The notes below the pieces were generated by a model that was not told the DNA's origin, ran no database searches, and saw only the letters and a list, made by a program, of their open reading frames with translations. A DNA stretch of 64,000 nucleotides from a virus. Shown here piece after piece: positions 1,694 to 60,115 of the stretch. The stretch is from positions 36,686 to 100,685 of IMG/VR virus record IMGVR_UViG_3300045988_149331; one strand, 5' to 3'. How positions within the stretch are numbered: position 1 is the first letter of the stretch; the number at the start of each line of letters is the position of its first letter. The position numbers were made by a program, and so were the translations under genes.

Positions 1694-3451
1694 CTATTCG
1701 AACAACAGGGTTTCTGCCTTTTCGATCGACATTTCATCAACGTGGAGTGCGCCAAGATCAATCTCTTTGGCCTTCCACGTATCAGGGATCATGTCTTCAG
1801 CACCGAGTGTTTTGGCGCGACGCTTGATCCAGCGGCGAGCGCGTTCGGGGTTCTTAGCGTTGCCGGCGAGGCGGATGGCATTCTTCAGATCAGACTTGTT
1901 GCGGATCGGGAACGAGCCGTCGGGGAGGGCCTCCTTTTTCTTGGCGAGTTTATCGCGCTGCTCTTCGGTGAAATCGGCCTTTTCGAGCGATTCTGCGCCG
2001 TTAAGTAACTGCTCGGCCTTACTGATCGCGTCGGAGGTTTCGATCGGTTGAATGGCCTCATACGCGAGACTCTTCGTCAGCGCACGCACGGCACTCTTCT
2101 CCCACTCCTTTTGCTTCGCACCGATGAGGTTCGTCCACTCACCGCCCTGTTGGGCCATACGGTTAGAACGTTCCGTAGAGCGTTTTTCTGACAGAATGGT
2201 ACCGAAAGTACGGGTGGTAAACTTGGCGGGATCGATCTTATCCTTATTCTTGACGATCAAATCGAACAGCTCTTGGCGTTCGGCCTTGTCCTCTTCAGGA
2301 TCGTCAAGGTGAGGTGCCTGAGGTACGTCCATACTGGCGAATCGGTCTTTTAGTACCTCGATAGTTTCATCAACCGTCAGGTACACCTCCGACGAAAGCG
2401 TAGCGCGGCTGATGATAGCTTTAGTATCTTCGTTCTTGGCGAGGTTCACCAAGTCCTTGTTGGTCATGATGATGATACGTCCCGTGAATACGAAATTCGA
2501 CTTGACGTCTTCAGGGTCGCCGACGACGCGTTTACCACTGGCGGCAGTAGCTTTCTTCATGATAGAAGCCAGGTCGGCGCGGGTGATAACGGAATCGGTA
2601 TCGTCGAACAGCAGAATCTTGCCGTTGTGGGCCTTGAGTACGCCCAACAGCTGCTTCTTGGAGTTGATATCACCAAGTTCAACGTAGTCATAATCGCCGT
2701 CGCCAGGGGCGTCGGTCTCAGCGTCAAACGGACGCTTGTTGAGCAGTTCGGCGATCTTCTTGAAACCGTACGACTTACCAACGCCTGCGCCTCCGGCCGA
2801 GATCATGAAGCGTTGCTCCTTGTTGTCCAAGAACTCCAGATACTGGCGGTTCAGGTCGTACATTACCTCAACGGGCGGCTGGTAGTCGGGGTCCTTACGC
2901 TTCATCTTGTAGACGAAACGGTCGTAGGCGATACGGTCTTGGCGGTTCTGGAGTTTGTTGAATTTCTTCTGAACACGCGGGTCCTCGGGGTTGAGGAACC
3001 AGTCTTCCATAATCTCGCCATCGACGTTTTCACCTTCGCCGTCGTTAATATCAACCTTGTCTTGGGCGTTAGTAGGCGCAACGTCGTCCTGCTTGGAGGT
3101 CATCTTCAGCAGCGCGTCGAGTGTACCGGAGGTATCAACAGCCGAAGCGTCGAATTCGTCACGCGTCTTCAACTCCTCATAGGCAATCTTACGCAACTGC
3201 GCGTTGCCCTTGGGGTTGTTTACTACTTTGAGCAGATTGTCTGCGGAGGTACGCTTGGCCCACTCTTCAAGGCTGGCGGAACCGCCAGCAGAACCCGATT
3301 TACCTTCGTCGGCGGCAGGAGCCTTCTTGTTCTTGGCGTTTTTGTCGAGACGCCAGTTGAACTTTCCTGGCTTGTATTCGGTCCAAACCCACGGCTGTGT
3401 AGGGTGGTGGTCGCCGACGTTGTGTTTTGCTTTTTGGATAATGTCTGACAT
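1694..3451 (-). CDS. AAA+ type P-loop ATPase domain protein
   Basis: Walker A GGAGVGKS, Walker B ILLFDD, sensor-1-like IIIMTN, SR arginine; N-terminal module (aa 56-97) shared with the ART protein at 8165-9919. Confidence 0.6.
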   Translation of the reverse strand: MSDIIQKAKHNVGDHHPTQPWVWTEYKPGKFNWRLDKNAKNKKAPAADEGKSGSAGGSASLEEWAKRTSADNLLKVVNNPKGNAQLRKIAYEELKTRDEFDASAVDTSGTLDALLKMTSKQDDVAPTNAQDKVDINDGEGENVDGEIMEDWFLNPEDPRVQKKFNKLQNRQDRIAYDRFVYKMKRKDPDYQPPVEVMYDLNRQYLEFLDNKEQRFMISAGGAGVGKSYGFKKIAELLNKRPFDAETDAPGDGDYDYVELGDINSKKQLLGVLKAHNGKILLFDDTDSVITRADLASIMKKATAASGKRVVGDPEDVKSNFVFTGRIIIMTNKDLVNLAKNEDTKAIISRATLSSEVYLTVDETIEVLKDRFASMDVPQAPHLDDPEEDKAERQELFDLIVKNKDKIDPAKFTTRTFGTILSEKRSTERSNRMAQQGGEWTNLIGAKQKEWEKSAVRALTKSLAYEAIQPIETSDAISKAEQLLNGAESLEKADFTEEQRDKLAKKKEALPDGSFPIRNKSDLKNAIRLAGNAKNPERARRWIKRRAKTLGAEDMIPDTWKAKEIDLGALHVDEMSIEKAETLLFE

Positions 3452-3486: not shown

Positions 3487-4296
3487 CTACACCTCCACCG
3501 CGTCAAAGTCAATATCAAATTTCTTGTACACAATTCGCAACTCCGGTACGCCGTTAATTGGCTTCTTCTTTTCGTCAATACGAGCGTTCAACGGCCAGCG
3601 CTTGAGTATGATGTCGTGCGCCCGCTGCACGCGCTCCTGGCGTTCGTATACGTCTTGGAGACCGCCGCCCTGGTTGGCTTCCTTGTTCATCTTACTCTGG
3701 AGAAGGAACCGCACGAACCGCGCGTAGACGATTCCCAGGTACATGCATTTCAACGAATAGTCGATGTCGCATTTCAACTCCAACTTTTCGTCAAAGTCCA
3801 GTTCCAGCGTCCGTAGCCCCTTGAAGACGATCAAGTGTGGAATACCGCCGTACTTGAAGCGCGGGCTGACGTCGGTACAACTCCAGTCGAAGGCGCTCTT
3901 GCCCATCGTTCCATACTCAAAATCGGTTTCCATGACCTCGCGATCAAACTCCTCAAAGAACTCGCTGAGTTCTTCCGGCGTTTTCAACGACAGCCCACAC
4001 TTGGCTTCACCGTCGATCGAGTAGAAGAAGTTGGCGATGTCGTCATCCATCACCACCACCGGGTGGTTCTTGCGGAGGTAGGTGTTCTTGCAGAAATTTA
4101 CCACGTAGCTGTAGCCGCGGTTCGAGGCCGGCAGCACAATCAGCCGCTCACGGGCGTGACCCGCTTCGACGTATTTTTCAACGTCCTCCTTTTCGACCAC
4201 AATATTGTAGTCAACGCCGCCCTTTTCCAACAGTTTAGTCGTGACGCACTTGGGGCGGTTCTTGGACACGACGAAGAATTGACAGTTCATACTCAA
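3487..4296 (-). CDS. GT-A-like (DxD) glycosyltransferase-like protein, paralog of 21202-22017
   Basis: N-terminal beta-strand FFVVSKNRP, DxD motif VVMDDDI, C-terminal KCDIDYSL..NQGGG..Y segment alignable with KEDFAVAC..NAAGG..Y of 21202-22017; ATGA overlap with upstream gene. Confidence 0.35.
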   Translation of the reverse strand: MSMNCQFFVVSKNRPKCVTTKLLEKGGVDYNIVVEKEDVEKYVEAGHARERLIVLPASNRGYSYVVNFCKNTYLRKNHPVVVMDDDIANFFYSIDGEAKCGLSLKTPEELSEFFEEFDREVMETDFEYGTMGKSAFDWSCTDVSPRFKYGGIPHLIVFKGLRTLELDFDEKLELKCDIDYSLKCMYLGIVYARFVRFLLQSKMNKEANQGGGLQDVYERQERVQRAHDIILKRWPLNARIDEKKKPINGVPELRIVYKKFDIDFDAVEV

Positions 4297-4973
4297 AAGG
4301 GTAATTCACCTTCGGACCATATTTCCTCGGGTGGGTTTTGTTCTATGAAACGTTGATATTTGTCTATCGTAGGCTCCAGCGACGGGTAGAACCTAAAGGC
4401 AAGTTCCCACTTGACGTCAAACATATCGTCGCACGGGACTTTGCGCTTCATCAACACATTTTCGTTGTTGTAGCACTGAATTGTGACTTGCTGACGGCCA
4501 CGCGAAGTGTACGAATAGGGAAAGTCGCGATAGTACTCAGCCAGCGAAACCGTATCTTGAACAACGTCGTGAATGAACTGATTGAAGGGGTGTCCCAGCC
4601 CCAACGGCGCCAATACGGTATAACCACGGTTGCGTCGTAGGAAACGACGCAAATGGTCGCGAAGCGTTTGTTCGGCGAAATTAAGCGTGTCAGTTCCGTA
4701 TTTAGTTCTGAGGTACGTATAGACGCTGGAGAGATTAAAGTCCTTGAAATGGTCGCCAAAATCGCTACAAATCGCATCTTCGAACCCAGTGTCGAAGACA
4801 TCCATCGTAATACCCATGAATTCATAGAGCGATCGCTGTTCTACAACGCGGTTTGGGTCGCTATCTACAGTAAGCACCCGAACGTCATATTCGGGTGCTA
4901 CTAAAACGTGACAAGCGCTCATCAGGAGATCACCCGCGTGAGGCTCGACACACAGGTACTTTATTTTTCCCAT
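4293..4973 (-). CDS. PIG-L/LmbE-like deacetylase-like protein
   Basis: N-terminus LCVEPHAGDLLMSACHVL..DVRVLTV resembles the (v)aHPDDe..gG..L...V.vv.lT signature of PIG-L family; overlaps both neighbours. Confidence 0.4.
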   Translation of the reverse strand: MGKIKYLCVEPHAGDLLMSACHVLVAPEYDVRVLTVDSDPNRVVEQRSLYEFMGITMDVFDTGFEDAICSDFGDHFKDFNLSSVYTYLRTKYGTDTLNFAEQTLRDHLRRFLRRNRGYTVLAPLGLGHPFNQFIHDVVQDTVSLAEYYRDFPYSYTSRGRQQVTIQCYNNENVLMKRKVPCDDMFDVKWELAFRFYPSLEPTIDKYQRFIEQNPPEEIWSEGELPF

Positions 4974-5920
4974 GGCCGCTTGTAGATTTTCTCAGCGCAG
5001 GGGCCGTCTTTCGACACGTCCTCAGCCATCTTCCGGATTTCCGGCGTGATAGGCGGCAGCGTTTGCTTACCCATTTTGTCAGGCAGGAAGCCGACGCGGA
5101 CGCTTACGTGCGTACACCCCTGACACGGGCGGAAGCGGCGGTCGTTGTTGTACAGCATGACACGGGCGGCGTGAAAGCGCGGGTGGTTCCACAGGTCTTC
5201 GATGGGCATGTCGTGGATGTTGGCGATTGGGTACTCACCGCGGAAGTCATCACAGCACAGACACACCTGGCCATTCCACCTCACGTCCAGTTCGCGGAAC
5301 GGGAAGGTGCACCGCTTGTTGTTGAACGAATCGTCAAGCGGGAAGGCCGCGCCGCAGTGGTTGGCCAGGCGACGTGTCATCTTGTTGGTGTCGTCGTGGG
5401 CGATAGGCGGCAGCAAGCAGATACGACGGCCCTGCTTGGGGTAGTAGTACGGAACGCCGGGTTCCAGCGTCACGACGTTGTACTTATCAACATCGATCTT
5501 CTCGACGAAATTCCAGTCGCCGTTGGCCGTGTAGCAGTCCACCAGAATATCGTTCATACCTGCTCCGAACAGCGCGTCGAGGTACGCCTCGGTGTCTTCA
5601 GCGTGGTTCATGGCGTAACCGTTACTGTACATATGAAACACAGCCTTCGGCAAGTGCTTGCGGAACGTGGCGACGATGTCGATGAAGGCAGGATTCAGCG
5701 TCGGTTCGCCGTGCATAGCGAACACGAACTTACAGTTCCAACCCACCCGCGCTACCTCCGAAGCAATACGCTCGGCCGTTTCGACGGTCATGAAATTCCA
5801 GGGCTTGGTCCCCTTTTCACGCATACCGTGTAAACCGCAGAACGAACAACCGAGGTTACAGCCCTCGGTAGGTTCAATCTGCATGGTAAACGGGGGGTCT
5901 TGTACGATTTTGTTTTTCAT
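4961..5920 (-). CDS. radical SAM enzyme with SPASM/twitch-like C-terminal Cys-rich domain
   Basis: CNLGCSFC (CX3CX2C) at aa 21-28, GEPTLNP SAM-binding motif, C-terminal C..GQVCLCCDD...CQGC cluster pattern. Confidence 0.8.
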   Translation of the reverse strand: MKNKIVQDPPFTMQIEPTEGCNLGCSFCGLHGMREKGTKPWNFMTVETAERIASEVARVGWNCKFVFAMHGEPTLNPAFIDIVATFRKHLPKAVFHMYSNGYAMNHAEDTEAYLDALFGAGMNDILVDCYTANGDWNFVEKIDVDKYNVVTLEPGVPYYYPKQGRRICLLPPIAHDDTNKMTRRLANHCGAAFPLDDSFNNKRCTFPFRELDVRWNGQVCLCCDDFRGEYPIANIHDMPIEDLWNHPRFHAARVMLYNNDRRFRPCQGCTHVSVRVGFLPDKMGKQTLPPITPEIRKMAEDVSKDGPCAEKIYKRPWEK

Positions 5921-11611: not shown

Positions 11612-11616
11612 GGCTG

Positions 11617-13257: not shown

Positions 13258-13515
13258 TTAGCGTGAATATAGGTAGGCGGTACGGTCGTCCCAAACGAAA
13301 TTGAAACTCATATCCCCTTGAGGATATTCCGTGATGGTAATGCCGTTGGCGGTTGTTTCACGTTCGATACGCCAGCCCGGCTCTCCCTGGCCTGTGCCGA
13401 TAGGGGCATATCCGCGATACACGGTCCCCTCAGTGGAAGCGTCGATGATAGGCTTCGGCATGGCCTCCGAAAGCAACTGCACGATGGGTGCAGTATTCTT
13501 CTCGTTACTCGTCAT
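13258..13515 (-). CDS. hypothetical protein
   Basis: 85-aa co-directional ORF overlapping portal stop by 11 nt. Confidence 0.45.
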   Translation of the reverse strand: MTSNEKNTAPIVQLLSEAMPKPIIDASTEGTVYRGYAPIGTGQGEPGWRIERETTANGITITEYPQGDMSFNFVWDDRTAYLYSR

Positions 13516-15271
13516 GATCTATTGCTTTTTGTAAGTATTCGTCAAATGCGGCCACGAGCGGGTTTGCCTCACGGGCCTTCATAGTCTCTTCGTCGTCGCC
13601 TTGGGCGTAAAGGTCAAACGGGTTGCCGCCCTGGGCGTCGGCGTCTTCTTCGCCTTCACCACCAGCCACAGGCTCATCAGCCGGGCCGCCTGCTGCCTCC
13701 ATACCCATACCAGCGGCCTCTTCGAATGGGTTTCCACCGCCCATTCCCATACCGCCCATCGCCTGCTGCTGTTGCTGCTTGGCGCTGAGGGCTTGTTGAA
13801 TAACGGAGTTTTCGATAGTATCACCACCCTTTTCTTCGCCGATGGCGGGGAGGTCCCACTTTTCGCGAATTTCATCGACGGTCTGGAAGGCTTGAAGGCG
13901 TTTGATGTCCATATCCAACTCCTCGGAAATAGTCATTCCGTTGAGGCCCATGAACACGAACTCAAAGTCAGGGTTAATCTGGTCAACGATGAACTTGTTA
14001 ATCTTACGCTGGATGAACTTCAACAGCGGATACAGACCCTTGTCTTTCGACTGCTCCATACGTTGTTTTTGGCCATCGCCAAACGTCAGGCCGCTGTTGT
14101 TAGAACGTGATATGTCCCAACCGATTTCCGTCGGGTCGATACAGTACACAGCGCAAGCGATCTTAATCAGGTATTCCATCCAAGACGTGTACTCCATATC
14201 ACGGTTGTTCTTCTGGAGGTCTACCCAGTCAATATCACCTTCGACGACAGGCGTCTTCCACGACTGCATAACGCCTGAAATCATCGCCTGCCACTGCTGT
14301 TTGAACTGCTGAAGCGAAGCCTCGTTGACGTTGCCCTTGATACGCAACAGACCCTTCGGGGCTGACCCCTGTGAGAAGAAACGGCGGTTGTACTCATCAC
14401 CCCAAAGCATCGACGTGACGACGTTGATCAACTCTTCCAACTCGGAGTTCCCGTAGCCGTTAGCGTAGATAGACGTTGACGGGTTGCGGATTCCAAAGCA
14501 CAACTCCCATGGATAGAACTGTGCCACCTTGGCTGTTTGGTACACCTGGACGTAGGCCGGGTAGTAACCGTCGATTTTTTGCCCCCAGTTTTGGCGGTCA
14601 TCCATCATTACGCCGCGGAAATACGGGTTGTCGTATTCACCATCAAAGTACGAATCTGCCAACCGGAACGTAGCAGCGTCTACAGCCTGGAAACGTACCA
14701 ATTTACCGCGGCGATTGCGGATACATTCAAACGTCAGCTGGTCGAACGTCAACGAGTCGTCAACGATCTTACGTATGAACTCGTCAAATTCGTCACCATC
14801 CCACGCAGCAGTATCGCCACAGTTTAGGATGAAGTCCGTGATGGACGAAGCGATCTTGCAGTCTTGGGAGTCCATTTTCTGCTCCATACCGTGACGCGGC
14901 TTGCGTCGAATAACGAAGCCCGTCGAATAGCGGTCGGCCTGCGGTTCAGCAAAGTCGGCCACCTGATTCTTACGGGTCTTGATGATGGAGTTGATAATGG
15001 GGGTGCGGCTCATCCGGCGCAGCGTCTCGTACGAGAGTGAGAACGGCTTATCCTTGTAACCCAAAAACGAGTTGAACTCCAACGGGTCGATGAGATATGC
15101 CTTGGGGGCCACGTTGGCGGGCTTGCTTTGCTGGTTAAATATTTCGGCCGCTTTGAGTATGTCGGACGGGTTATCACCACGCAGCGCCTTCTCCACCAAC
15201 AGCGATTTGCGGATGGTCAAGGCTTGCATGGCGCGTTCTACCGATTCCAATCTTTCTTTTACACCGGACAT
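13505..15271 (-). CDS. portal protein
   Basis: RRFFSQGSAPKGLLRIKGNV..SLQQFKQQWQ..G..QSWKTPVVEG..WVDLQ....MEY..W.EYLIKIACAVYCIDPTEIG follows the conserved portal core pattern; Gly/Met- and acid-rich C-tail. Confidence 0.7.
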   Translation of the reverse strand: MSGVKERLESVERAMQALTIRKSLLVEKALRGDNPSDILKAAEIFNQQSKPANVAPKAYLIDPLEFNSFLGYKDKPFSLSYETLRRMSRTPIINSIIKTRKNQVADFAEPQADRYSTGFVIRRKPRHGMEQKMDSQDCKIASSITDFILNCGDTAAWDGDEFDEFIRKIVDDSLTFDQLTFECIRNRRGKLVRFQAVDAATFRLADSYFDGEYDNPYFRGVMMDDRQNWGQKIDGYYPAYVQVYQTAKVAQFYPWELCFGIRNPSTSIYANGYGNSELEELINVVTSMLWGDEYNRRFFSQGSAPKGLLRIKGNVNEASLQQFKQQWQAMISGVMQSWKTPVVEGDIDWVDLQKNNRDMEYTSWMEYLIKIACAVYCIDPTEIGWDISRSNNSGLTFGDGQKQRMEQSKDKGLYPLLKFIQRKINKFIVDQINPDFEFVFMGLNGMTISEELDMDIKRLQAFQTVDEIREKWDLPAIGEEKGGDTIENSVIQQALSAKQQQQQAMGGMGMGGGNPFEEAAGMGMEAAGGPADEPVAGGEGEEDADAQGGNPFDLYAQGDDEETMKAREANPLVAAFDEYLQKAIDHDE

Positions 15272-15308
15272 AATGTTTTTACGCGATTTATGTACCTATA
15301 ATTGGCTA

Positions 15309-15632
15309 TCAACCCAACATTTTCAAAATGTCGTTGCAGGCCGTTTTCCTGATTATCAACGCTTGATGAACGATATCTCCCCACACCGCCAACTGATGAC
15401 CGCGCCATGAGTAGTAGTCGGTTTGGTCATCGTACGAACCTTGCCACTCGCCTTCGCTGCGTATAGTAGCCACCAAACGGCGAAATGCTCGCTGTTCGTC
15501 GGTAGTGAGGGGTGATATAAAAGTGCCGACGACTACTAATCGTGCGGCACTCGTTGTTAGATCATCGGCTAACGTTTGAAAGTTAATGCCCATGAACTCA
15601 CCTGTCTCTAATGGGGTATGAAAAGTTATCAT
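15309..15632 (-). CDS. hypothetical protein
   Basis: Co-directional ORF, 4-nt overlap with upstream gene. Confidence 0.45.
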   Translation of the reverse strand: MITFHTPLETGEFMGINFQTLADDLTTSAARLVVVGTFISPLTTDEQRAFRRLVATIRSEGEWQGSYDDQTDYYSWRGHQLAVWGDIVHQALIIRKTACNDILKMLG

Positions 15633-16639
15633 TCGCCAACCAATTTTACAGTTCGTGGTTCAAAAGTAGAGCGTTGCTTACCTTCACCGATGCGCATCTT
15701 CCAGTATTTTTGATATTCACACAACCACATCTCGATCTGGTGAAGGGTTATATTGCCGTGAGGCGTTGTGTAATATCCTGCTTCGAGTTTGTGCCAGTGT
15801 AGGTACGGAAAATCTCCAAATGTCGCCAACGCCACCTGCGCTTCATCACGCAGACGATAGATACCGTCAATTTGACGTTTCAACGACGGGAATATTAACC
15901 GCAACCCAATCGACGCCCCAGGCCCCACGTTAGTGTAGTCATCCTGAGTGAAACGCATGAAACGCCGATATGTATATCGCGGTATATAGGTGAAATCTTG
16001 ATAGAATTCGTGAGCGATGAATGCAGCCGATGACGGAAGCCCCTGAAGGAACTTGATGATCTGTTCAGGAGTTTGGGCCGTAAATACCATCTTGATGAGT
16101 TCACCCAAGCGACGGTGTAACGTAGGCACTACCAGATGGGTGTAACAGTAATCACGCGGTTTACCCGGCGTGGCCATGGAATTGATGAGATATGCCGTGG
16201 TGTAGGGGTTGTTCCCCGAAGCGCGGTACGACGTTATCATCTCTGCAAAAGCGTCTTCGTCGTAGCTGTCGTAATCTGGAATACCAGCGCCCCAGCCATA
16301 CTTATCGCGAGCGTATTCAAAAGTACTGGGGTTGTTGAAATACCGGAACACCATCATCTTCCACACCAAGCTGGCTAACGACAATGAATCATCCAACAGA
16401 ATATTTCGAATTTGCCACTGGGAATTTCGATCCAGTTCGCGGTACACGTTAGTGAACTTGTAGTCGCGCAAAATAGGGTCTTCAGTCCAGGGGCGTGGTT
16501 GGTGATCGATGAAACGTCGTTTCCAGATCATTTGCCGCTCAAACATCGTGCGAAAGAACTCCGTGCGGTGTTCGTCGCTCACGTCAAGCGTATCAGATGG
16601 GAGTTTGTCACTCCAAGAATAGTGATCAAAGTTTGCCAT
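15629..16639 (-). CDS. alpha-glutamyl/putrescinyl-thymine pyrophosphorylase (aGPT-Pplase)-like DNA base hypermodification protein (candidate)
   Basis: N-terminal MIWKRRFIDHQPRPWTEDPILRDYKFTNVYRELDRNSQW matches my recollection of the R..W.RR....PWT.DPIL...KFTNV(F/Y)R.LDR.SQ signature of this family; needs HMM confirmation. Confidence 0.45.
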   Translation of the reverse strand: MANFDHYSWSDKLPSDTLDVSDEHRTEFFRTMFERQMIWKRRFIDHQPRPWTEDPILRDYKFTNVYRELDRNSQWQIRNILLDDSLSLASLVWKMMVFRYFNNPSTFEYARDKYGWGAGIPDYDSYDEDAFAEMITSYRASGNNPYTTAYLINSMATPGKPRDYCYTHLVVPTLHRRLGELIKMVFTAQTPEQIIKFLQGLPSSAAFIAHEFYQDFTYIPRYTYRRFMRFTQDDYTNVGPGASIGLRLIFPSLKRQIDGIYRLRDEAQVALATFGDFPYLHWHKLEAGYYTTPHGNITLHQIEMWLCEYQKYWKMRIGEGKQRSTFEPRTVKLVGE

Positions 16640-16940
16640 TTTGTTTACAATAGCTTCGTATCAGCAATTCACGGCGCGCTTCAGAGGTCTTTCCAGCCAG
16701 CCGGAACAACGTAGCATCAGGCAAGTTCTTCAGTGGTCGTTTAGCTGCATTTACAAGACGCGCTTCGTCTATAACGAGGTTTACCCTTATCCGCCGCCCG
16801 CGGATCAATTTGACGGACTCTGCAGCGAGCAGTGGACAATAATCGTTACCGTGTAACGAACGTACAATAAACGTCATCGAACCCCAAACCTCAGGGTCTG
16901 CAACGACGTCGCCTATTTTGAAATATCTCCATCGGTCCAT
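16626..16940 (-). CDS. hypothetical protein
   Basis: Co-directional ORF, 14-nt overlap with downstream gene. Confidence 0.45.
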   Translation of the reverse strand: MDRWRYFKIGDVVADPEVWGSMTFIVRSLHGNDYCPLLAAESVKLIRGRRIRVNLVIDEARLVNAAKRPLKNLPDATLFRLAGKTSEARRELLIRSYCKQNGKL

Positions 16941-17026
16941 ATAACTAAAAAACGTTGGCCCCGAAACGCTTACTGAATCGAGGCCGCGGTCCTAACTAAC
17001 CTTGGAAAATGGAAACAGAAAAGAAA

Positions 17027-17698
17027 CTAAAACCCGAACACCGTCAGCTGTCGAGGCGACAATTGATAGCGTTCGTTGTCGGAAAGATTAGTCTCGAGAA
17101 TTTCACACGCCTTGATGTCGGTAGCGACATTGGCGTACTCACGGACCTTATCGTTGTACTCCTGGCGGCACTTACGCATTTCGGGAGTAACAGGGTTCTC
17201 CTGCTCTTCGCCGGCAATGAGCGATCCTGCAACTTTAGGACCTTCACAGAGGTCGCATGCCTGCCACGAGAAGATGCGGAACGGAAAATCCATCTTGATC
17301 TCCGCAGTCCACCAGGGCGGAACGGTCTCGGTAGGAGCCCCGCCGCAGTCTTCGAGTTTGCTCTCGATTTCAGCCGTCAGGACTTGGAGTTTAGCGTTCA
17401 GCGGCGGAAGAATATCGGCCTTCAGTTTAGCCTTGATTTCCTTGCCCAGTTTGCCGAACTTGATGTTAGAATCGTAGCTGATGGCGTTCATGATGTCCGA
17501 TTTCTCGATCTCGCCCTGAAGAGCCACGTCGCTATCGCCGGACTCAGCCTTTTCGATAGCCCCGGCCATCTTCTCGAAAACGTTATCAGCCTTTTCGACC
17601 TTTTCCTCAGGGTCTTCGGAAACCGGAGCGAAGCCCTTCAGCATGTGCTCTTGACGCTCAGCGCGAACGCCAAGAATGATATCACGAATGTTTTCCAT
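17027..17698 (-). CDS. hypothetical acidic protein
   Basis: 223-aa co-directional ORF; no motif recognised. Confidence 0.5.
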   Translation of the reverse strand: MENIRDIILGVRAERQEHMLKGFAPVSEDPEEKVEKADNVFEKMAGAIEKAESGDSDVALQGEIEKSDIMNAISYDSNIKFGKLGKEIKAKLKADILPPLNAKLQVLTAEIESKLEDCGGAPTETVPPWWTAEIKMDFPFRIFSWQACDLCEGPKVAGSLIAGEEQENPVTPEMRKCRQEYNDKVREYANVATDIKACEILETNLSDNERYQLSPRQLTVFGF

Positions 17699-17882
17699 CG
17701 CTCACTTCGGTTTTTGCGGCTCGCGCCTTTACGTAATTAACCCACGCCCAGTGTGCCACCACGCCCGCCGTGAACGAGCCAATAGCCACCAACGTGTGAA
17801 TGATCTTCGCCTCATGGGCGTACACTACCGCAGCCACGACAAGCGCGACAACGATAATAAGAATCCACATCCATTTCTTCAT
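17682..17882 (-). CDS. small two-TM membrane protein
   Basis: WILIIVVALVVAAVVYA and LVAIGSFTAGVVAHWAWV hydrophobic segments. Confidence 0.4.
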   Translation of the reverse strand: MKKWMWILIIVVALVVAAVVYAHEAKIIHTLVAIGSFTAGVVAHWAWVNYVKARAAKTEVSDGKHS

Positions 17883-17901
17883 ACTACTATAATTTTGGTT
17901 G

Positions 17902-18894
17902 TTACTTAATCAACATTCCGTAGAAATCCTCAAGTGTGTATGCCTTTTTATAGTTGTAAGAATCCTTCGTATTGGCCACTTCTTCAGCCATTGCTACGAG
18001 CAGTTCTTCTTGGCGCGGCCCGTACACTGAAGGCGACAGCCAGGTTAATTTTACGTTGAACAGAATCTGACCTATCTCGTCAGTGCTTAACGGCGCACCC
18101 AAGAATTTCTCGAACTTGGACTGAATCCACAGCGCCAGTTTCGTCGAGACATATTCTTGGAAATAAGTCGGCGATACGAGTCGGCCGTTGAATTCTTGTT
18201 TCAGCGATTCGATAAAACGGTTGAACGCCTTATCACCAAATCCGCGCCGCACCTTGGGGATATTATCCGACTTATCACCCATCAGCACCTTGTACAGCAA
18301 CACCTCCATCGCTTCAGTATTGAGGACCTGGATGTCGGCATCCAACAGATCGTTCCACAGCGATTCTTTACCGGGGAAACAGTAAAATTTCATGAACTTG
18401 GAGTTGTAGTTGAACACCGAAACCGTTGGCGTTATCAACTGGCGAATATCGCTATCGGCCGTGAGGATGACTGTTTCTTCGCCGGGGAGTTCGTCCAGCG
18501 CAAAGGCCCACAACATCATCAGGTCGTCGCCTTCAGCGCCCGGTACGCGCGTAACGATCAACCCGCGTTTACGCAGCAGGCTTTCCAGTTCGCCCAACAC
18601 CTCGATGAACGCATCACTCCACGGCTCCTTTACCTTGGTGAGTGCGTACTTGTAGTCGTCATATACGTCACGACGCCACGAATGAGAGTCAATCACCACT
18701 ATCACGCGATGAACGTTATCGCCAAAACGGCGTACCGCGGCGCAAAGATTCATCACGCACTTACGGATCAGCACCTGGCGTTTTTCCGGGTCATCCAAGA
18801 CCTCTGTTAAATCTTGACCCCGGTAGTACGTGGACCACACTGAAAACGACAGGTGGTACAGGAAATTGCCGTCAAATACGAGATTAATCTTCAT
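17902..18894 (-). CDS. 5'-3' exonuclease / flap endonuclease (T4 RNase H-like, PIN-like fold)
   Basis: Acidic-residue motifs LVFDGN, IDSHSWRRDVYDDYK, GAEGDDLM, TADSDIRQL, MGDKSDNIP. Confidence 0.75.
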   Translation of the reverse strand: MKINLVFDGNFLYHLSFSVWSTYYRGQDLTEVLDDPEKRQVLIRKCVMNLCAAVRRFGDNVHRVIVVIDSHSWRRDVYDDYKYALTKVKEPWSDAFIEVLGELESLLRKRGLIVTRVPGAEGDDLMMLWAFALDELPGEETVILTADSDIRQLITPTVSVFNYNSKFMKFYCFPGKESLWNDLLDADIQVLNTEAMEVLLYKVLMGDKSDNIPKVRRGFGDKAFNRFIESLKQEFNGRLVSPTYFQEYVSTKLALWIQSKFEKFLGAPLSTDEIGQILFNVKLTWLSPSVYGPRQEELLVAMAEEVANTKDSYNYKKAYTLEDFYGMLIK

Positions 18895-20659: not shown

Positions 20660-21205
20660 CTATTTGGTTTCAGGTTCTTGGCTCTTGACGGTCGATCCCC
20701 ATCCTGCTTCGCCGCGAGCGCTGGGCGTGAGTTCTTCGACGAGTGTAGGTTCAATCAACGGCGCAGGCACAATCACCAGCTGAGCAACGACGTCGCCCTT
20801 CTTGTACGCCTTACATTCGTACGACAGCTCCCGCATTTTGAAGTCGGCGATAGTCCCTAAGACGTTGGAGAACAACACCGCCAAACACCGCGACATACGC
20901 TGCCACAGCGTGGGCATGTGATAGATCTTTTTGTAGCGTACCAGCATCTCGCCACGGTACCCCGGGTCGATAATACCCGGCGCGTTACACATCACCAGGT
21001 CCATCTTCGACACGCGCGAGTTGGGGACCAGCAACCCGCTGTACCCTTTGGGAATTTCAACGGCGATTCCCGTCTGGTACTCGATGAAATCTTCGGTTTC
21101 GCGTACTCCAACGGCTACCAGGTCCAAGCCGTTATCCTCGCCATCGGCGTGGGCATACGCCGGCAACGTGGCGTTGGGGTTGAGTTTCTTGAATTTTACG
21201 TTCAT
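20660..21205 (-). CDS. dut: dUTP diphosphatase (trimeric dUTPase) with about 30-aa insertion
   Basis: Motifs DNGLDL, GIIDPGYRGE, GDVVAQLV, RGEAGWGST; insertion between motifs III and IV. Confidence 0.85.
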   Translation of the reverse strand: MNVKFKKLNPNATLPAYAHADGEDNGLDLVAVGVRETEDFIEYQTGIAVEIPKGYSGLLVPNSRVSKMDLVMCNAPGIIDPGYRGEMLVRYKKIYHMPTLWQRMSRCLAVLFSNVLGTIADFKMRELSYECKAYKKGDVVAQLVIVPAPLIEPTLVEELTPSARGEAGWGSTVKSQEPETK

Positions 21206-22017
21206 TTCTTGTATCCTTTTAAGTGTATTTTGACCTCGATCATCTCACGGTCCTTCATTTCACCACCCCAGTTGGTACACTTTTTGGTACGGAGGGTGAT
21301 GTACTCGGGGAACGCTTCTCTTAAACGTTGTGATTCGGCGTTGGAGTTCTCGATCGTACGATAAATCGAACAACCACCAGCGGCGTTGGCTCCCGTCATT
21401 TTGTCGAACGAATACTGATACGAGACGATATTATCCAACCCCGCGCGGCGTAATCCACACGCCACGGCGAAATCCTCCTTTATGGGCCAATCGCTGAACC
21501 TGACAGGCTGACTTAGATACTGGGCGATATTGAGGCCCCAAATGGAGAAGAACCGCCCGTTTATTTGTACGTCGTGTTCCTTGTCGCGGTTGAACGGACG
21601 GTATGAAAGCGCAGCCACGGCGTAGGTGTCTAACTGCTCAGCCACCCAGTCGAACATCATCTGGTAGATGTATTCCTGCGCCTCGACGGTGAAATTGTCG
21701 TTGTTTACGACCACAGGGGTCTTGGCATCGTCTAAACGCAACGAGAAAGACACGTTATCGTCTAAGAAAAAGACTCCTCCAAATCCCCTATCAACGGCCT
21801 CTACAACAATATAGTCCCGTATGTCCCCCACGCCGCGACACGCCGTACTGTATTCCTCGATACTGGCTACTTTTCCACCCCAGTTGCGCTGGTGAGCCGC
21901 CAACTCGCCGGGGTGACAGAATATGTGGACGCGCTTCAACGCTTCAGGCGTCAACCGTTGAAGAGTTTTTTGGCGGTCAACACGACCTCGTGTGAATAAG
22001 GCTATCAGAGTTTTCAT
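21202..22017 (-). CDS. GT-A-like (DxD) glycosyltransferase-like protein, paralog of 3487-4296
   Basis: LIALFTRGR, FFLDDNV DxD-like motif, KEDFAVAC..NAAGG..Y alignable with 3487-4296; ATGA overlap with dut. Confidence 0.35.
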   Translation of the reverse strand: MKTLIALFTRGRVDRQKTLQRLTPEALKRVHIFCHPGELAAHQRNWGGKVASIEEYSTACRGVGDIRDYIVVEAVDRGFGGVFFLDDNVSFSLRLDDAKTPVVVNNDNFTVEAQEYIYQMMFDWVAEQLDTYAVAALSYRPFNRDKEHDVQINGRFFSIWGLNIAQYLSQPVRFSDWPIKEDFAVACGLRRAGLDNIVSYQYSFDKMTGANAAGGCSIYRTIENSNAESQRLREAFPEYITLRTKKCTNWGGEMKDREMIEVKIHLKGYKK

Positions 22018-52929: not shown

Positions 52930-53589
52930 TTAAATGATATTTTTTAATAAATCGATGATATCATCCTCCGACGCGTACAGCGAATGCGACGTAGTGCAAA
53001 TACCCATCTCAATGCACGTATTTCGTAACGTTGAAACTGCCTTATAGTAGTTATCCTTACAGTAGGGCAGCAAGTTTAACGGCCATGAACGGTTGCCGAT
53101 AGCCAATTCGCGGTTCAAAAAGTACAGCAGCGCCATCCAGTCTGCTACTTTCACAATAGCGTGCATCACGTCGTAGAACTTATCCTCTTTGGAGAACATT
53201 TTGACCACTTCGGATTCCTCGCCAAACTCTTCCGTCAACTGGTGGTTAACGAACTTATCAAGCACGTTTCGGATTTCGCCGCCGTTGTAGTTGTTGTACT
53301 TGAGTTCGTGGGTGATATCGCGGCGCAGAATGGCTTCGTCGAAGTCGTGCATCAACGCCAGTTTCAGCGTCTGGTATTTGAATAACCACACTTCGGCGCG
53401 TTGTGTGTCAGACGGCCACAAATATTCCAAGAGGCTCATCGCGAAGACCGAAACCTTAAACGAATGTTGTGACACGCTTTCCTGCTGGTGGCGGTCGTAT
53501 TCCAACCACTGCTTGATGTTATCCAACCGCGCCAAATAGTCACGGTTGAATAGCTTTATCAAATCTCCTTTGTTTCCTTTGTTTTCCAT
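52930..53589 (-). CDS. HD-domain 5'-deoxynucleotidase-like hydrolase (YfbR-like)
   Basis: ESVSQHSFKVSVFA ... LALMHDFDEAILRDI (H..HD..E) pattern. Start set to ATG 53589, which is preceded by GTAAAAC. Confidence 0.6.
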   Translation of the reverse strand: MENKGNKGDLIKLFNRDYLARLDNIKQWLEYDRHQQESVSQHSFKVSVFAMSLLEYLWPSDTQRAEVWLFKYQTLKLALMHDFDEAILRRDITHELKYNNYNGGEIRNVLDKFVNHQLTEEFGEESEVVKMFSKEDKFYDVMHAIVKVADWMALLYFLNRELAIGNRSWPLNLLPYCKDNYYKAVSTLRNTCIEMGICTTSHSLYASEDDIIDLLKNII

Positions 53590-53603
53590 ACGATTTTGTT
53601 TTA

Positions 53604-56447
53604 CTACTGTAGTATTTCTAACCTTGTAGATGGACACGACTGGATGACCTTCTTGCCCGCAAAGAAATTAACGCGTCCTGATACAGCCACAACTCGGTTC
53701 AGCAGCGTCGCTTCAGTTTCAGGCTGGTATTTCCAAAAGTCAGCCCACAACGTGACTTGAACGATAAGGCTGTTGATTTCTACCTGCAATACGCCATACG
53801 TATCACCCCGCTTGGTTTGACGTTCGAATACGTTGTTAACACGCCCCACGATACACACCTCGTCACCTTCGTTTTTCTTCTCGAATTCAGGCGCAGTAAC
53901 GTACAGCCGAACCATCCGTTTTCCGAGACCATACTCGTTCAACATACGCGTGTAGTCCACTTCGCCATACCCGGTTATTTCGCGCTGTTTGAAGACCCAC
54001 CAAGCGTTAGTATGGGCATCGGGAGTAGCGAATTCTTCAGGCAGTTCTTCGCCCCGGCGTTCGAGATATTGTTTGACGATATCTAACCGTTGACGCGGGT
54101 TGCGTACTCCTTCTACAAGGTCGAACGCTCCGGCTGTTATCAACCGTAATACCACCGTGCGATTAACGCCCGTAGGGACTGACGTTATGAAGTCTTCGAA
54201 AGAAAACACCTCGCCGTGCTCAGCCTTCATTTGTTTGAGGAGCGTCAACGCCCGATCGCCGACGCCTTTAACCTTCCCCAGTGAGAAGAAGATACGATTG
54301 GTTTCAGGGTCGCAGGTAAACGTATCGCCCGAGAAATTGATATCCGGCGGACGCACCTCAATATCGACACCCGTCTTCTTCATTTCAACAAGCCGATACG
54401 GAATATCAGCCTCTTTGGAAGCGTACTGAAGCGACGTCGTCCAAAACTCCAACGGGTAGTTCACCTTAAACCACTGCGACCAGTACGACATCATGGTATA
54501 GGCCACGGCGTGAGAATTACACGTTACCACACCACCGTCAGTCAAAAACGTGTGTGACACGTTGCCGCTCACCTCCACGTCATAGACTTTTTCTTCACCT
54601 ACGCACTGAATATTGACGATTTCTTCCAATCGTGTTAACAATCCCTTTTCACCCATTCGGTGACGCGGTAGCGTTTCAAAGTGGATTTTCTTATGACACG
54701 AATTACAGAGCCACATCAGGTTGCTAACGTCATTATTCGCCCGATTCCCATCCATATGATGAGCCTCCATGCGTTTTCCCACTTTGCCGCACTTATCACA
54801 CGGGCATCCGGCGTGTTGGCGTTTGAAATTTTCAAAGTCAACGGTGGGATGATATTCTTGACGCTGGAATCCGCACTGACCCTTCGTAGGATAGTTTTGA
54901 GACCTACCACGTTGGAACGAATAATCCTTATTCGTTTCTTCGTATCCAGCCCAGATATACAATCGAGCACCAACTGCCAAACCGCTATCTATAGACATTT
55001 CACCCGCCGGTGTCGGGAAGCGGTGATTAGACGTACAGCGTATCTTTTCGCCGGAACGTACAGTGATTTCGTAAACCGGACGCACACCTTCAAAACGGAT
55101 GTCAACGATTTTATTACGAACCAACCTGCCTTCGTCGTTTAACGACCAGCACATTCCGTACCCTGAACGAATATACTTATCGCTTAACGATTCGTGAGAT
55201 AGCCATAAATCAGACGTGCGATTCTTTATTTCGTACATCTCTTCGATAGTGGGAGCATACGAACCGCGCGTAATACCTACGCGACGAATACGTTCCGAAC
55301 CTGCCAAGCACTTATTGAAGCCGTACGAAGCGAACGCCAGCATCTTCTCCCAGACTTCAGAGGCTTGTTCAACGGCTCGTTTTTCCGCAACTCCTTTTGA
55401 TTTTATCAAATTGGAATATCCGTTAACGAACTTTTCCTTGAATTGAGCTAAGGCTGTGTGATTCTTTTTCTTAATGTACGTACGACACTCGTCGGATTCG
55501 ATAGGCGTTAAACCTCCAACAACCATCGCTTTCATGATCTGCTCCTGGTAGGTGTACAACGAATAGGTATCACGAGTGATATCCTCCATCCCGGGGTCAA
55601 ACTTTGGCTTCTTGCGGCCGTTCTTTATATCGACAAACGTTTCGTGCGCCTTCACATCCATCGGGCCTGGTCGGAACAGTGCCGTCATAGCGATTAGGTC
55701 GTCGAGACTTTGAGGTTTAGCCTCGCGACAGTAATTCATCAGTCCCATGGCTCCAAACTGGAATACGTCTTCACACCACCCACGCTGGAAATAACGGTAA
55801 ACCTCTTCGTCGTTGAACGGAATGGCGTTAACGTCGATTTGCTCCCGACGGTTCTTGGCGATAAGTTTGATAATAGACGAGAACTTATCCAGCTGGTTAA
55901 GACCCAATATGTCCTCCTTCAAGAATCCGGACTTGTCAACATACTTGCCTTCCCACTCTGATACAAGCACATCGCCCATTTTCTTCATAGGCATCCACCC
56001 AAACAAGTCGATCGGGTTTCCATCCTCATCTTCCTGCGGTACAACAATGACCGCTGAGGGATGAATTGACGACGTTTTACACTGCGTAAGGGCGTATTTC
56101 GTCATATGGACCAACTCGGGGTGATCCTGCACAAAACGGAACAATTCACGCGATGTAGCTGCGTAGTTAAACAAGTCACCCCACGTGTACTCGATTTGGT
56201 CGTCGATGTCCTTGGTGAGTTTGTTCATTACCGCGAACGGCACGCCCATGACCTTGCCGAAATCCTTCAAACATGTCTTGAGTTTCATGCGGGTGTACGT
56301 ACCAACAGAGCACACATGATTGACGCCATAGCGTTTGGACATGTATTCCTTCACTGTATCCCGAAATGCAACAGGGAAATCGGCGTCCACGTCCGGCATG
56401 CTGTCCTGACGGGCAATTTCGACTTTTTCTATTTTTAGAATCTTCAT
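53604..56447 (-). CDS. dnaE: DNA polymerase III alpha (DnaE) C-terminal fragment: palm catalytic Asp pair onward, fingers, OB fold; contains an intein
   Basis: SMPDVDADF...TYTRMKLK..LKDFGKVMG collinear with E. coli SMPDFDVDF...TFGTMAAK..IRDVGRVLG; FRPGPMD; GFNK|SHAVAY split by intein. ATG 56447 overlaps the GIY-YIG stop (ATGA). Confidence 0.8.
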   Translation of the reverse strand: MKILKIEKVEIARQDSMPDVDADFPVAFRDTVKEYMSKRYGVNHVCSVGTYTRMKLKTCLKDFGKVMGVPFAVMNKLTKDIDDQIEYTWGDLFNYAATSRELFRFVQDHPELVHMTKYALTQCKTSSIHPSAVIVVPQEDEDGNPIDLFGWMPMKKMGDVLVSEWEGKYVDKSGFLKEDILGLNQLDKFSSIIKLIAKNRREQIDVNAIPFNDEEVYRYFQRGWCEDVFQFGAMGLMNYCREAKPQSLDDLIAMTALFRPGPMDVKAHETFVDIKNGRKKPKFDPGMEDITRDTYSLYTYQEQIMKAMVVGGLTPIESDECRTYIKKKNHTALAQFKEKFVNGYSNLIKSKGVAEKRAVEQASEVWEKMLAFASYGFNKCLAGSERIRRVGITRGSYAPTIEEMYEIKNRTSDLWLSHESLSDKYIRSGYGMCWSLNDEGRLVRNKIVDIRFEGVRPVYEITVRSGEKIRCTSNHRFPTPAGEMSIDSGLAVGARLYIWAGYEETNKDYSFQRGRSQNYPTKGQCGFQRQEYHPTVDFENFKRQHAGCPCDKCGKVGKRMEAHHMDGNRANNDVSNLMWLCNSCHKKIHFETLPRHRMGEKGLLTRLEEIVNIQCVGEEKVYDVEVSGNVSHTFLTDGGVVTCNSHAVAYTMMSYWSQWFKVNYPLEFWTTSLQYASKEADIPYRLVEMKKTGVDIEVRPPDINFSGDTFTCDPETNRIFFSLGKVKGVGDRALTLLKQMKAEHGEVFSFEDFITSVPTGVNRTVVLRLITAGAFDLVEGVRNPRQRLDIVKQYLERRGEELPEEFATPDAHTNAWWVFKQREITGYGEVDYTRMLNEYGLGKRMVRLYVTAPEFEKKNEGDEVCIVGRVNNVFERQTKRGDTYGVLQVEINSLIVQVTLWADFWKYQPETEATLLNRVVAVSGRVNFFAGKKVIQSCPSTRLEILQ
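54516..55310 (-). mobile_element. intein with HNH endonuclease domain in dnaE
   Basis: Begins CLAGSERI after GFNK, block B TSNH, HNH CDKCGK..HHMDGNRANN..LCNSCHKKIH, ends VVTCN followed by +1 Ser (SHAVAY); 265 aa. Confidence 0.8.
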
Positions 56448-58888: not shown

Positions 58889-60115
58889 CTACAAAATTGT
58901 ATTCGGGTCCGCGTTAGATAACCTTGCCGCGAAGAAATTGCGCGCCAGCATTAGGTAGTCCCAACGCGCATCGACTTGATAGTAACTCGGCATATAATCG
59001 ATGATCGAGATACTGCTTTTCAACAGCTGATCGCGATCCTCCGGCAGGCACCCACCGCGATTACGCTTATAGGAGATGTACGCCTTCAACAACTGATACA
59101 CGGCCGAAAAATATATCGACTTTTCATGGACGTATCGCTGGAATCCAGCCTCGTCTTCTGGATCGCCACCGTCGGCGTTACGGTTGAGCAGACGGGTGAT
59201 CATCTCCTCCAGGAATACAGTTATTTCACGCAGGCGGTTTACCGGCACCTCGGACTCGAAATCAAAGTCCATCATGTACGAAATAGCTTCGTTGTAAAGC
59301 CCCATTTGTGCCGAATTAACAGGATATTCGGCGTTGGTGAAAAGGTCGAACATCTTCTCGGTAATGTCGTTCCATTCGTAGACGTGAAGCGACTGCGAGT
59401 TATGAGTCTGAACACCCAACTCAATGCCCAGACACAGCGACATTATCTCCGTCAGGAACGAAAACTGGAAGATGTTCGTAGGGAGACCCCAGTGAAGGTC
59501 ATTCGAACGATTCTGGACCGTGGTAACGAGTTTACCGTCGCGAATTTTCAACATCACCATATCGTTACACGGCAGGTCCTTGGTCTTCACACCGAGGTCG
59601 AACTTGGGGTTCCAAATCGACATCACCACCTGCCGCGTATCAGGATCAGCCGACAGTAAGCGTATCGCCTCTGCAACCTGATCCAGTCCAGTATCGGCCG
59701 ACTCGCTTTCCGAAGCAATTCCCCAGTGGCGCAGGCGCCACCCGTAGGGAGCATGAAACGTTTCGCCGTTGTCCGAAAAGTCAGCCATCCGGCTATTGAA
59801 GATCGTCAGGAACTCAACGTCCTTACGACCCACGGCGATCCACATCGCTTCAGCCAGCAGGAAGAACACGTTGATATTACGACCGTACCCGCCCACGCAG
59901 CGGCGATAGGGGTTGGTGATAACGGTCTTCACGTCCAGCAGTTCGCGCACCTTTCCGCCACGTGAATTACGCCACGGCAGTTTACGTATCGTATCGTTGA
60001 TGTACGGATACAACTGGGCAAATGATCTGCGGGGATCGGTGACGTAAGTCGTTTGACTTTCAAGTTCACTGACTGAAACGCCATCAACGGACTTGGATAT
60101 TGTTTCTTCTTTCAT
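58889..60115 (-). CDS. divergent thymidylate-synthase-fold enzyme (candidate dUMP hydroxymethylase or thymidylate synthase) with long C-terminal extension
   Basis: FHAPYGWRLRHW, DPDTRQVVMSIWN, catalytic LPCN, NRSNDLHWGLPTNIFQF align with ThyA YGxQWR, DPDSRRxIxSAWN, PCH, QRSxDxxLGxPFNI; 408 aa versus about 264 for ThyA. Confidence 0.65.
   Translation of the reverse strand: MKEETISKSVDGVSVSELESQTTYVTDPRRSFAQLYPYINDTIRKLPWRNSRGGKVRELLDVKTVITNPYRRCVGGYGRNINVFFLLAEAMWIAVGRKDVEFLTIFNSRMADFSDNGETFHAPYGWRLRHWGIASESESADTGLDQVAEAIRLLSADPDTRQVVMSIWNPKFDLGVKTKDLPCNDMVMLKIRDGKLVTTVQNRSNDLHWGLPTNIFQFSFLTEIMSLCLGIELGVQTHNSQSLHVYEWNDITEKMFDLFTNAEYPVNSAQMGLYNEAISYMMDFDFESEVPVNRLREITVFLEEMITRLLNRNADGGDPEDEAGFQRYVHEKSIYFSAVYQLLKAYISYKRNRGGCLPEDRDQLLKSSISIIDYMPSYYQVDARWDYLMLARNFFAARLSNADPNTIL

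Follow-up and report, generated by a model that had tools for sequence, protein, structure and literature searches.

A stand-alone PF18723 gene beside the portal gene

The window analyzed here, 64,000 nucleotides (nt) of viral DNA from positions 36,686 to 100,685 of IMG/VR record IMGVR_UViG_3300045988_149331, contains 86 open reading frames (ORFs), nearly all on the minus strand. The subject of this report is one of them, g18 (15629..16639, minus; coordinates are those of the window), whose product is a stand-alone protein of Pfam family PF18723, and the DNA modification system to which it may belong. A sequence-only reading had called a gene here, between the portal region and replication genes, and had assigned it from an N-terminal signature to the alpha-glutamyl/putrescinyl-thymine pyrophosphorylases (aGPT-Pplases). 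The gene call was exact, as g18 is an ATG-to-stop ORF of 336 amino acids (aa), and the location was also described correctly: the portal gene lies at 13505-15271, and the gene for a FEN-like 5'-3' exonuclease lies at 17902-18894.

The g18 protein matches PF18723 over its full length (profile positions 5-279 of 281; E value, 3.9e-51), and its 174.5 bits, against a cut-off of 25, provide the significant clade 1 match that was sought with the Pfam aGPT-Pplase profiles. It also matches phrog_2396 (function unknown; E, 5.8e-50) and has no match in NCBIfam. The peptide quoted for the signature, WKRRFIDHQPRPWTEDPILRDYKFTNVYRELDRNSQW, corresponds to residues 39-75 and does hold the best-kept N-terminal positions of the family: N64, R67, and D70 do not vary among 140 diverse homologs, and P50, W51, and F62 hardly vary. 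An exhaustive search returned 3,104 cluster representatives at an E value of <=1e-3, almost all of them stand-alone proteins of 290-400 aa, longer fusions being rare; the family profile has no match among PDB sequences. Homologs with 24-30% identity were found by tblastn in 460 phage records, including those of SP-10, PaMx11, M6-like and ViI-like phages, and SH-Ab 15599. In the cultured phages examined, the PF18723 homolog lies beside or near genes for a dUMP hydroxymethylase (in every one of them) and a kinase.

Full-length matches to the same family are found in the classical thymidine-modifying phages: ViI gp160, phiW-14 gp72, the C-terminal part of SP10 gp186, PaMx11 gp50, and, by synteny, M6 gp55. 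These proteins share with g18 the invariant residues, including a Cys-Glu pair, and the predicted fold, but they are only 24-30% identical to it. Furthermore, g18 has no adjoining or fused P-loop kinase and sits between the exonuclease and portal genes, whereas its classical counterparts are located in the modification cluster.

PF18723 is currently named HMUDK_hel, “5-hmdU DNA kinase, helical domain,” in Pfam (5-hmdU, 5-hydroxymethyldeoxyuridine). The group name aGPT-pyrophosphorylase is that given by Iyer/Aravind, according to Lee 2018 and Lee 2021, and “aG/PT-PPlase1” in Table 3 of Lee 2018 comprises phiW-14 gp72, SP10 gp186C (fused to the kinase gp186N), and ViI gp160. PF18723 is also matched by PaMx11 gp50, the SH-Ab 15599 homolog, a 400-aa homolog of the Kuttervirus Salmonella phage BRM 13314, and, at 1.7e-49, a Bacillus phage GenBank protein labelled “aGPT-pyrophosphorylase clade 1”; neighbors of g18 in BFVD are likewise labelled “Pplase1 clade 1.” Together with the listing in Lee 2018, these matches therefore identify PF18723 as the former aGPT-Pplase clade 1. 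The SP10 match is confined to the C-terminal, non-kinase half of the 637-aa gp186, and it is because of this kinase fusion that the family bears its present Pfam name.

The controls PaMx11 gp46 and SH-Ab 15599 Pplase2 match PF18724, “amino acid:DNA transferase” (AADT, also written ADDT; formerly aGPT-Pplase clade 2), and the kinases of reference phages match PF18748 or AAA_33. For g18 there is no match to PF18724, PF18748, AAA_33, or any relevant family other than PF18723 at an E value of <=1, and no Walker A motif in a scan. g18 is a clade 1 protein and not a member of the proven transferase family, clade 2. The aGPT-pyrophosphorylase label of the sequence-only reading thus stands in its clade 1 sense, but the reaction cited with it, transfer of an amine or amino acid onto phosphorylated 5-hmdU, has been demonstrated only for clade 2 (M6 gp51, ViI gp247, PaMx11 gp46, phiW-14 gp109, and SH-Ab 15599 Pplase2). 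g18 is also a good marker of 5-hmdU-based thymidine hypermodification, as had been proposed. Table 3 of Lee 2018 and Table 1 of Lee 2021 put M6 gp51 and gp55 in opposite aGPT-Pplase clades. In the M6-like phage MP1412, profile hidden Markov models (HMMs) and synteny place a PF18724 transferase first in the cluster and a PF18723 gene after the kinase gene; judged by synteny with the latter (MP1412_14), M6 gp55 is probably the clade 1 gene.

Two small genes overlap g18. The stop of g19 (16626..16940, minus; 104 aa) overlaps the start of g18 by 14 nt on the upstream side, and g17 (15309..15632, minus; 107 aa) has a 4-nt overlap (ATGA) with its stop on the downstream side. Neither has a Pfam or PHROG match. 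ORFs of 101-105 aa occur at the spot equivalent to g19 in relatives L105, L106, and L169, and ORFs of 94-111 aa occur at the spot equivalent to g17 in L005-L007, L105, and L106, in both cases matched by position only. The order of exonuclease gene, two further genes, PF18723 gene, small ORF, and portal gene is kept down to ~60% identity. A megablast search of 15000-19000 against 50,697 phage records gave no match, and the phage therefore has no close cultured relative.

Candidate pathway genes, kinases, and transferases

Window proteins were scanned with Pfam and PHROGs for candidate pathway genes, which are scattered at 3.5, 5, 21, 53, and 59 kb of the window, in agreement with the dispersed system suggested by the sequence-only reading. 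The 408-aa product of g81 (58889..60115, minus) has a thymidylate synthase fold (PF00303, 8.5e-23; phrog_5131, 7e-73) and is a predicted dUMP hydroxymethylase that would supply 5-hmdU. Its closest relatives are SP10 gp188 (2.9e-56) and PaMx11 gp51 (8e-41), and it is much nearer to these dUMP hydroxymethylases than to Escherichia coli ThyA or the T4 dCMP hydroxymethylase gp42, a comparison that is only indicative. The protein has the catalytic Cys in DLPCN, a uracil-type Asn within LPTN, and, at its C terminus, the extension typical of phage hydroxymethylases. Two further genes concern nucleotides. g77 (52930..53637, minus) encodes an HD-domain, YfbR-like 5'-deoxynucleotidase (PF12917, 1.4e-13; phrog_7076) and is a candidate nucleotide-pool editor; g26 (20660..21205, minus) encodes a dUTPase/dCTP-deaminase-like protein (PF00692, 1.5e-8; phrog_135, 2.9e-32). 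A dUMP hydroxymethylase(-like) gene and an HD-domain protein are thus common to this genome and the classical phages, and in PaMx11 the HD-domain protein gp52 directly follows the hydroxymethylase.

Two genes encode TET-associated glycosyltransferases (TAGTs). Copy 1, g4 (3487..4296, minus; PF20691, 5e-12; phrog_842, 1.1e-16), is kept in relatives L010-L012 and belongs to a tightly packed gene run, g7-g6-g5-g4-g3. Copy 2 is g27 (21202..22017, minus; PF20691, 4.3e-12; phrog_842, 4.4e-27). In the run with g4, g6 (4961..5920, minus) encodes a radical S-adenosylmethionine (SAM) protein with a SPASM domain (PF04055, 4e-15; PF13186, 7.6e-12); a role as an M6-type radical SAM isomerase was rejected, as there is no similarity to MP1412_12. 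Between g6 and g4, with overlapping gene boundaries, g5 (4293..4973, minus; 226 aa) has no match in Pfam, PHROGs, or PDB and is a possible pathway member by its position alone. Just downstream of g4, at the edge of the virion module, g3 (1694..3451, minus; 585 aa) has the Walker A motif GGAGVGKS.

The classical system has four components: a DNA kinase for 5-hmdU (5-HMUDK), an AADT, a clade 1 protein, and a dUMP hydroxymethylase. The present genome has the clade 1 protein and a hydroxymethylase-like protein; the kinase and the AADT were not detected. To cover the whole genome, the circle was closed at ~100 kb from near-identical and closely related contigs, the ~37 kb outside the window holding capsid and tail modules and further replication genes. 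Kinases and transferases were sought with Pfam among the window proteins, with phmmer --max from a set of 25 reference proteins, with custom HMMs on the ORFs of all six frames of the window, and with Walker A scans; the ~18-kb tail/baseplate region beyond the window was screened by phmmer and Walker A scan. Neither the window nor the remainder of the ~100-kb genome yielded a P-loop 5-hmdU kinase (PF18748 or AAA_33-like), which is the outcome of the kinase search that the sequence-only reading had recommended. No clade 2 transferase (PF18724) was detected in the window by Pfam, phmmer, or HMM, or in the remaining ~37 kb, and neither a pyridoxal phosphate (PLP) enzyme nor an M6-type radical SAM gene was found in the ~100-kb genome. 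Compared with the classical systems, this genome has two TAGTs instead.

Two relatives served as positive controls. In L103 (48% identical), an ADDT with an EVETCLCKW motif and two P-loop kinases beside the PF18723 gene were recovered, and in L184, the most distant clade locus (54% identity), a kinase was recovered by the same searches, indicating that the methods are sensitive enough for these genes. These results bear on the possibility that the pathway is canonical but uses a divergent or non-homologous kinase or transferase, encoded by g3 or other unannotated ORFs, with g18 in the role that clade 1 has in M6 and ViI. The majority of the genome's ORFs match no family, and such kinases are hard to detect, that of PaMx11 reaching only an E value of 0.002 against the Pfam kinase model. 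In addition, g3 has its Walker A motif and shares the g7-g3 run with a TAGT and the radical SAM gene. However, the phmmer and HMM searches that succeed for relatives at 48-54% identity, with kinases and an ADDT recovered, are negative for the window and for 79 of the 80 clade loci. g3, the sole orphan Walker A protein of the reconstructed genome, matches phrog_1250 (unknown function) and, at just 0.039, AAA_30; it has no PDB relative and no match to the kinase references (E > 0.5) or the kinase HMM, and it lies at the virion-module edge. A hidden 5-hmdU kinase in g3 thus finds no support from PHROGs, Pfam, PDB, and the kinase HMM, and hidden partners of this kind appear improbable.

The 80 clade loci are the best 80 of an IMG/VR survey (±10 kb around the PF18723 gene; 54-99% identity); all belong to this phage clade, so the counts describe co-occurrence within the clade and not across the family. 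Within 10 kb of the PF18723 gene, 26 of the 80 have a TAGT, 1 has a kinase, and none has an ADDT. In two 56%-identical relatives, L169 and L171, the PF18723 gene is directly followed by the start of a TAGT-like ORF. In L169, the locus inspected closely (9998-12966), a TAGT gene begins 1 nt past the stop of the PF18723 gene and is followed by a gene for an FkbM-type methyltransferase (PF05050), and L171 appears to be a parallel case. Another PF05050 gene is found in L105, about 10 kb away (~20571 onward). The presence of FkbM-type genes in some clade members suggests that sugar decoration differs among relatives. TAGT copy 2 (g27) behaves as a variable cassette: the window and most relatives at 81-99% identity have it, ~5.4 kb away from the PF18723 gene; other relatives, at ~80-81% identity, lack it, and in these the terminase gene is directly followed by the dUTPase gene (compared in L005-L007 and L126-L129).

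A similar gene set has been described in pelagiphages (PMC9599517), consisting of a thymidylate synthase and PPlase1 with or without a 5'-deoxynucleotidase and with or without a beta-glucosyl-HMC-alpha-glucosyltransferase. These HTVC023P-type phages have the same four gene types as the present genome, the paper reports neither a kinase nor a clade 2 transferase for them, and they too are functionally uncharacterized. They are small SAR11 podoviruses with the genes clustered near PolA, whereas the present phage has a genome of ~100 kb, a sheath-like tail protein, a DnaE-type polymerase, and dispersed genes, together with a second TAGT and the radical SAM/SPASM gene. Clade 1, hydroxymethylase, and glycosyltransferases without kinase or transferase thus recur in the clade survey and in pelagiphages, and the combination is not an accident of assembly.

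Conserved residues, fold, and proposed chemistry

Across the 140 homologs, R35, N64, R67, D70, F207, and G241 are present in all, C307 and K311 are present in 139, and E308 is present in 137; the E303 position is Glu in 128 and Gln in 11. g18 carries the entire family-invariant set, namely, the R/N/R/D residues (FTNVYRELD motif), the Phe of the helix-hairpin-helix (HhH) region, the GPG loop, and E-x-x-L-C-E-x-x-K. R35, N64, R67, D70, F207, D215, E303, C307, E308, and K311 are regarded as putative active-site residues.

An AF2 model of g18 (pLDDT, 90.5; pTM, 0.88) is mostly helical. When compared with characterized homologs in BFVD, as the sequence-only reading had advised, it matches the SP10 gp186 fusion (F8WQ30; E, 1.4e-13; TMq, 0.74) and phiW-14 gp72 (C9DG43; E, 2.5e-7). 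The nearest fold outside the family is that of the AADT/ADDT proteins (PF18724; PaMx11 gp46, M6 gp51, ViI gp247, phiW-14 gp109, and SH-Ab 15599 Pplase2), the nearest BFVD neighbor outside PF18723 being an AADT-domain protein (TM, 0.48/0.54). Among 350,542 PDB chains, Foldseek ranked PaMx11 gp46 (8z2m) first, although not significantly (E, 0.69; TM, 0.40/0.45), followed by the HhH glycosylases MjOgg, EndoIII, AlkA, and OGG1, also not significant (E, 1.2-9; TM, <=0.52).

The glycosylase matches raise the question of whether g18 has a function apart from thymidine hypermodification, either as an HhH glycosylase or lyase in repair or anti-defense or as a “terminase small subunit.” The HhH-GPD glycosylases share with g18 an all-alpha architecture, an HhH followed by a conserved Asp, and, presumably, base flipping, and g18 lies beside the portal gene and matches the “terminase small subunit” family phrog_800 at 5.3e-6. 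However, the fold matches to glycosylases lack significance, and nothing in g18 points to N-glycosidic cleavage. The invariant Cys-Glu-x-x-Lys motif of PF18723 is not known from glycosylases. The constant proximity of PF18723 to dUMP hydroxymethylase genes in the cultured phages examined, and the hydroxymethylase-like g81 here, also argue against an unrelated function, which we consider very improbable. The “terminase small subunit” label itself was rejected: it derives from mislabelled 5-hmdU kinases or fusions (PaMx11 gp49, MP1412_13, and SP10 gp186), and the phrog_800 match to g18 covers only the C-terminal part of the 511-position profile.

Profile alignment by hhalign relates the g18 family to the ADDT family with an E value of 0.054 for small profiles and 0.01 for larger ones (140 versus 123 sequences), co-linear over 192 columns. 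The alignment pairs IEMWLC (303-307) of g18 with VETILC (243-247) of gp46, F207 with W146, and D215 with D153. In the crystal structure of gp46 (PDB 8Z2M), Cys247 attacks C6, Glu243 and Thr244 bind a metal at O4, and Cys247 and Trp146 clamp the flipped base. On this alignment, g18 would share with the AADTs a co-linear HhH region, the E-x-x-L-C motif, and candidate equivalents of the nucleophile Cys, the metal-binding Glu, the aromatic clamp, and a conserved Asp, but it has no Pfam match to PF18724, and the similarity is profile to profile only (E, 0.01-0.05). The N-terminal ligand/phosphate pocket of gp46 (D24, Y47, Y51, E92, D262, and E265) has no demonstrated counterparts in PF18723, which has R35, N64, R67, and D70 instead. 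Gene content provides a further line of evidence, as SP10 makes alpha-glutamylthymine with a kinase-fused clade 1 domain only and no clade 2 gene detected (Lee 2018 Table 3). Residue conservation, profile alignment, fold neighbors, and SP10 gene content together suggest that PF18723 proteins are probably catalytic.

A possible pathway can be outlined as follows. g81 would make 5-hmdU before replication, while g77 and g26 would edit nucleotide pools. g18, as an all-alpha HhH protein resembling DNA glycosylases, would then flip the 5-substituted deoxyuridine out of phage DNA for chemistry on its C5 side chain. Cys307 may act as the nucleophile on C6, Glu303 may hold a metal or water at O4, Phe207 may stack on the base, and R35, R67, D70, N64, E308, and K311 may form a pocket for a leaving or incoming group. 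The phage clade would have lost the P-loop 5-hmdU kinase and clade 2 transferase of the classical systems (M6, ViI, SP10, phiW-14, and PaMx11), and PF18723 would be paired with TAGTs and, in relatives, with a sugar-type methyltransferase. This loss and pairing make it most likely that the thymidine is hypermodified with a sugar or with some other group that is not an amino acid, by a route free of phosphorylated intermediates.

With family membership, residue conservation, gene content, and gene neighborhoods established, we infer that Cys307 is catalytic, that the substrate is 5-hmdU, and that g18 cooperates with TAGTs. We give an even chance to the reading that g18 flips bases out of 5-hmdU DNA and acts on them by Cys-dependent catalysis, within a hypermodification pathway that needs no kinase and probably uses sugars. 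More tentatively, PF18723 might be not a helical domain but a second class of Cys-dependent DNA-base-modifying enzymes; in this abundant clade of ~100-kb phages, it would act together with TAGTs and, in relatives, with a sugar-type methyltransferase to convert 5-hmdU, without passing through a phosphorylated intermediate, into a thymidine that is glycosylated, similar to base J, or still more elaborate.

Several observations weigh against a Cys-dependent, kinase-independent role for g18. The similarity between PF18723 and the transferases has weak statistical support (hhalign E, 0.01-0.05; Foldseek E, 0.08-0.7; TM, 0.40-0.54), and the residue equivalences between g18 and gp46 depend on that alignment. 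In the window, g18 is not adjacent to any TAGT, to the hydroxymethylase gene g81, or to the radical SAM gene g6. The absence of a kinase means that no homolog is detectable in a genome where more than half of the genes are without annotation and g3 is an orphan P-loop protein, and ~37 kb of that genome was taken from close relatives rather than from the window's own contig. Searchable literature reports no biochemical activity or function for clade 1/PF18723 proteins and does not mention PF18723 or HMUDK_hel.

Two further points, the present classification of PF18723 by Pfam curators as a helical accessory domain of the kinase and the continued formation of N-alpha-GlyT in an M6 lysate reconstitution from which gp52, gp53, and gp55 were omitted, also favor a non-catalytic accessory module. 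Such a protein would recognize and flip 5-hmdU and present it to the kinase in classical phages or to a TAGT here, tuning efficiency, extent, or site choice. Fusions of PF18723 with the kinase occur in SP10 gp186 and P0228, and in PaMx11 and MP1412 PF18723 comes directly after the kinase; its retention where TAGTs replace the kinase, including its adjacency to TAGTs in L169 and L171, fits a partner-agnostic helper, and the HhH-like fold is compatible with such a role. A passive binder is nevertheless unlikely to keep the Cys-Glu pair, K311, D70, N64, and two Arg residues near-invariant in 140 sequences at ~25% identity. In addition, these conserved residues align co-linearly with the paralogous transferase's nucleophile and metal ligand, and SP10 transfers glutamate without a clade 2 transferase. 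We therefore regard a purely accessory role as rather unlikely and retain the Cys-dependent enzyme as the preferred reading.

Other features of the genome and significance

Mobile elements interrupt two replication and packaging genes. The large terminase gene (22037-24757, minus; 906 aa) contains an intein with Hint and LAGLIDADG homing-endonuclease domains, and relatives at ~81% identity have an intein-less 563-aa protein at this position. The DnaE-type DNA polymerase III alpha subunit (53604-58887, minus) is split into g80, the PHP/N-terminal part, and g78, the finger/HHH part; a GIY-YIG/NUMOD3 homing-endonuclease gene, g79, lies between the halves, and g78 itself has an intein with an HNH domain. 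The subunit is split differently in L013 and L014, which marks the locus as a mobile-element hot spot. g74 (51226-51993, minus) encodes another free-standing homing endonuclease, of the GIY-YIG (SegE-like) and NUMOD3 type.

At the edge of the virion module, g11 (8165-9919, minus) encodes an ADP-ribosyltransferase exotoxin domain (PF03496, 2.5e-9) and shares the N-terminal-proximal motif NR(K/R)L(G/Q)RVG..Y with g8 (6852-7490, minus), and the C-terminal end of g3 has the motif DGSFPIRN..DLKNAI. It can be speculated that g11, g8, and g3 are packaged or ejected effectors. g25 (20070-20657, minus) encodes a ferritin-like domain protein and, in the direction of transcription, lies just upstream of the dUTPase gene, a position that it keeps in relatives. 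A single tRNA-Gln gene (anticodon TTG; 26922-26994, minus) lies in a short non-coding stretch, and the ORF overlapping it (26858-27103) is probably spurious.

Long low-complexity tracts, Ala/Pro/Lys-rich and Glu/Pro-rich and resembling histone H1 tails, are present in the two proteins encoded at 60219-61235 (minus) and 49958-51229 (minus). At both loci a plus-strand shadow ORF exceeds the likely real minus-strand gene, as is also the case for 17009-17740 (plus) versus 17027-17698 (minus). Among the related records, IMGVR_UViG_3300029572_000001 (199,131 bp; source of L017, L074, L079, L087, L088, L121, and L122) is a head-to-tail dimer of a ~100-kb genome, with copies of marker genes 99.3-100.1 kb apart and the capsid gene cut at both record ends, which supports a circular or terminally redundant genome.

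Thymidine hypermodification shields phage DNA from restriction enzymes, and the enzymes involved are useful tools for DNA chemistry. In the accepted pathway, a kinase is followed by a clade 2 transferase and tailoring enzymes; clade 1 is present in every classical system examined, and the literature searched assigns no function to it. A phage that keeps clade 1 and a hydroxymethylase with no detectable kinase or transferase offers a natural genetic background for isolating the role of clade 1. Furthermore, the residues shared with the nucleophile and metal ligand of the transferase provide a concrete hypothesis for mutagenesis. From the association with TAGT and FkbM-type genes, one would predict a thymine derivative that bears a sugar, of which no report for phages was found in the literature searched, and a Cys-dependent route through PF18723 and TAGTs, if true, would be a new route of DNA hypermodification. 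g18 adds one member to a large known family, and the system around it, a new form of thymidine hypermodification, points to an undescribed pathway.

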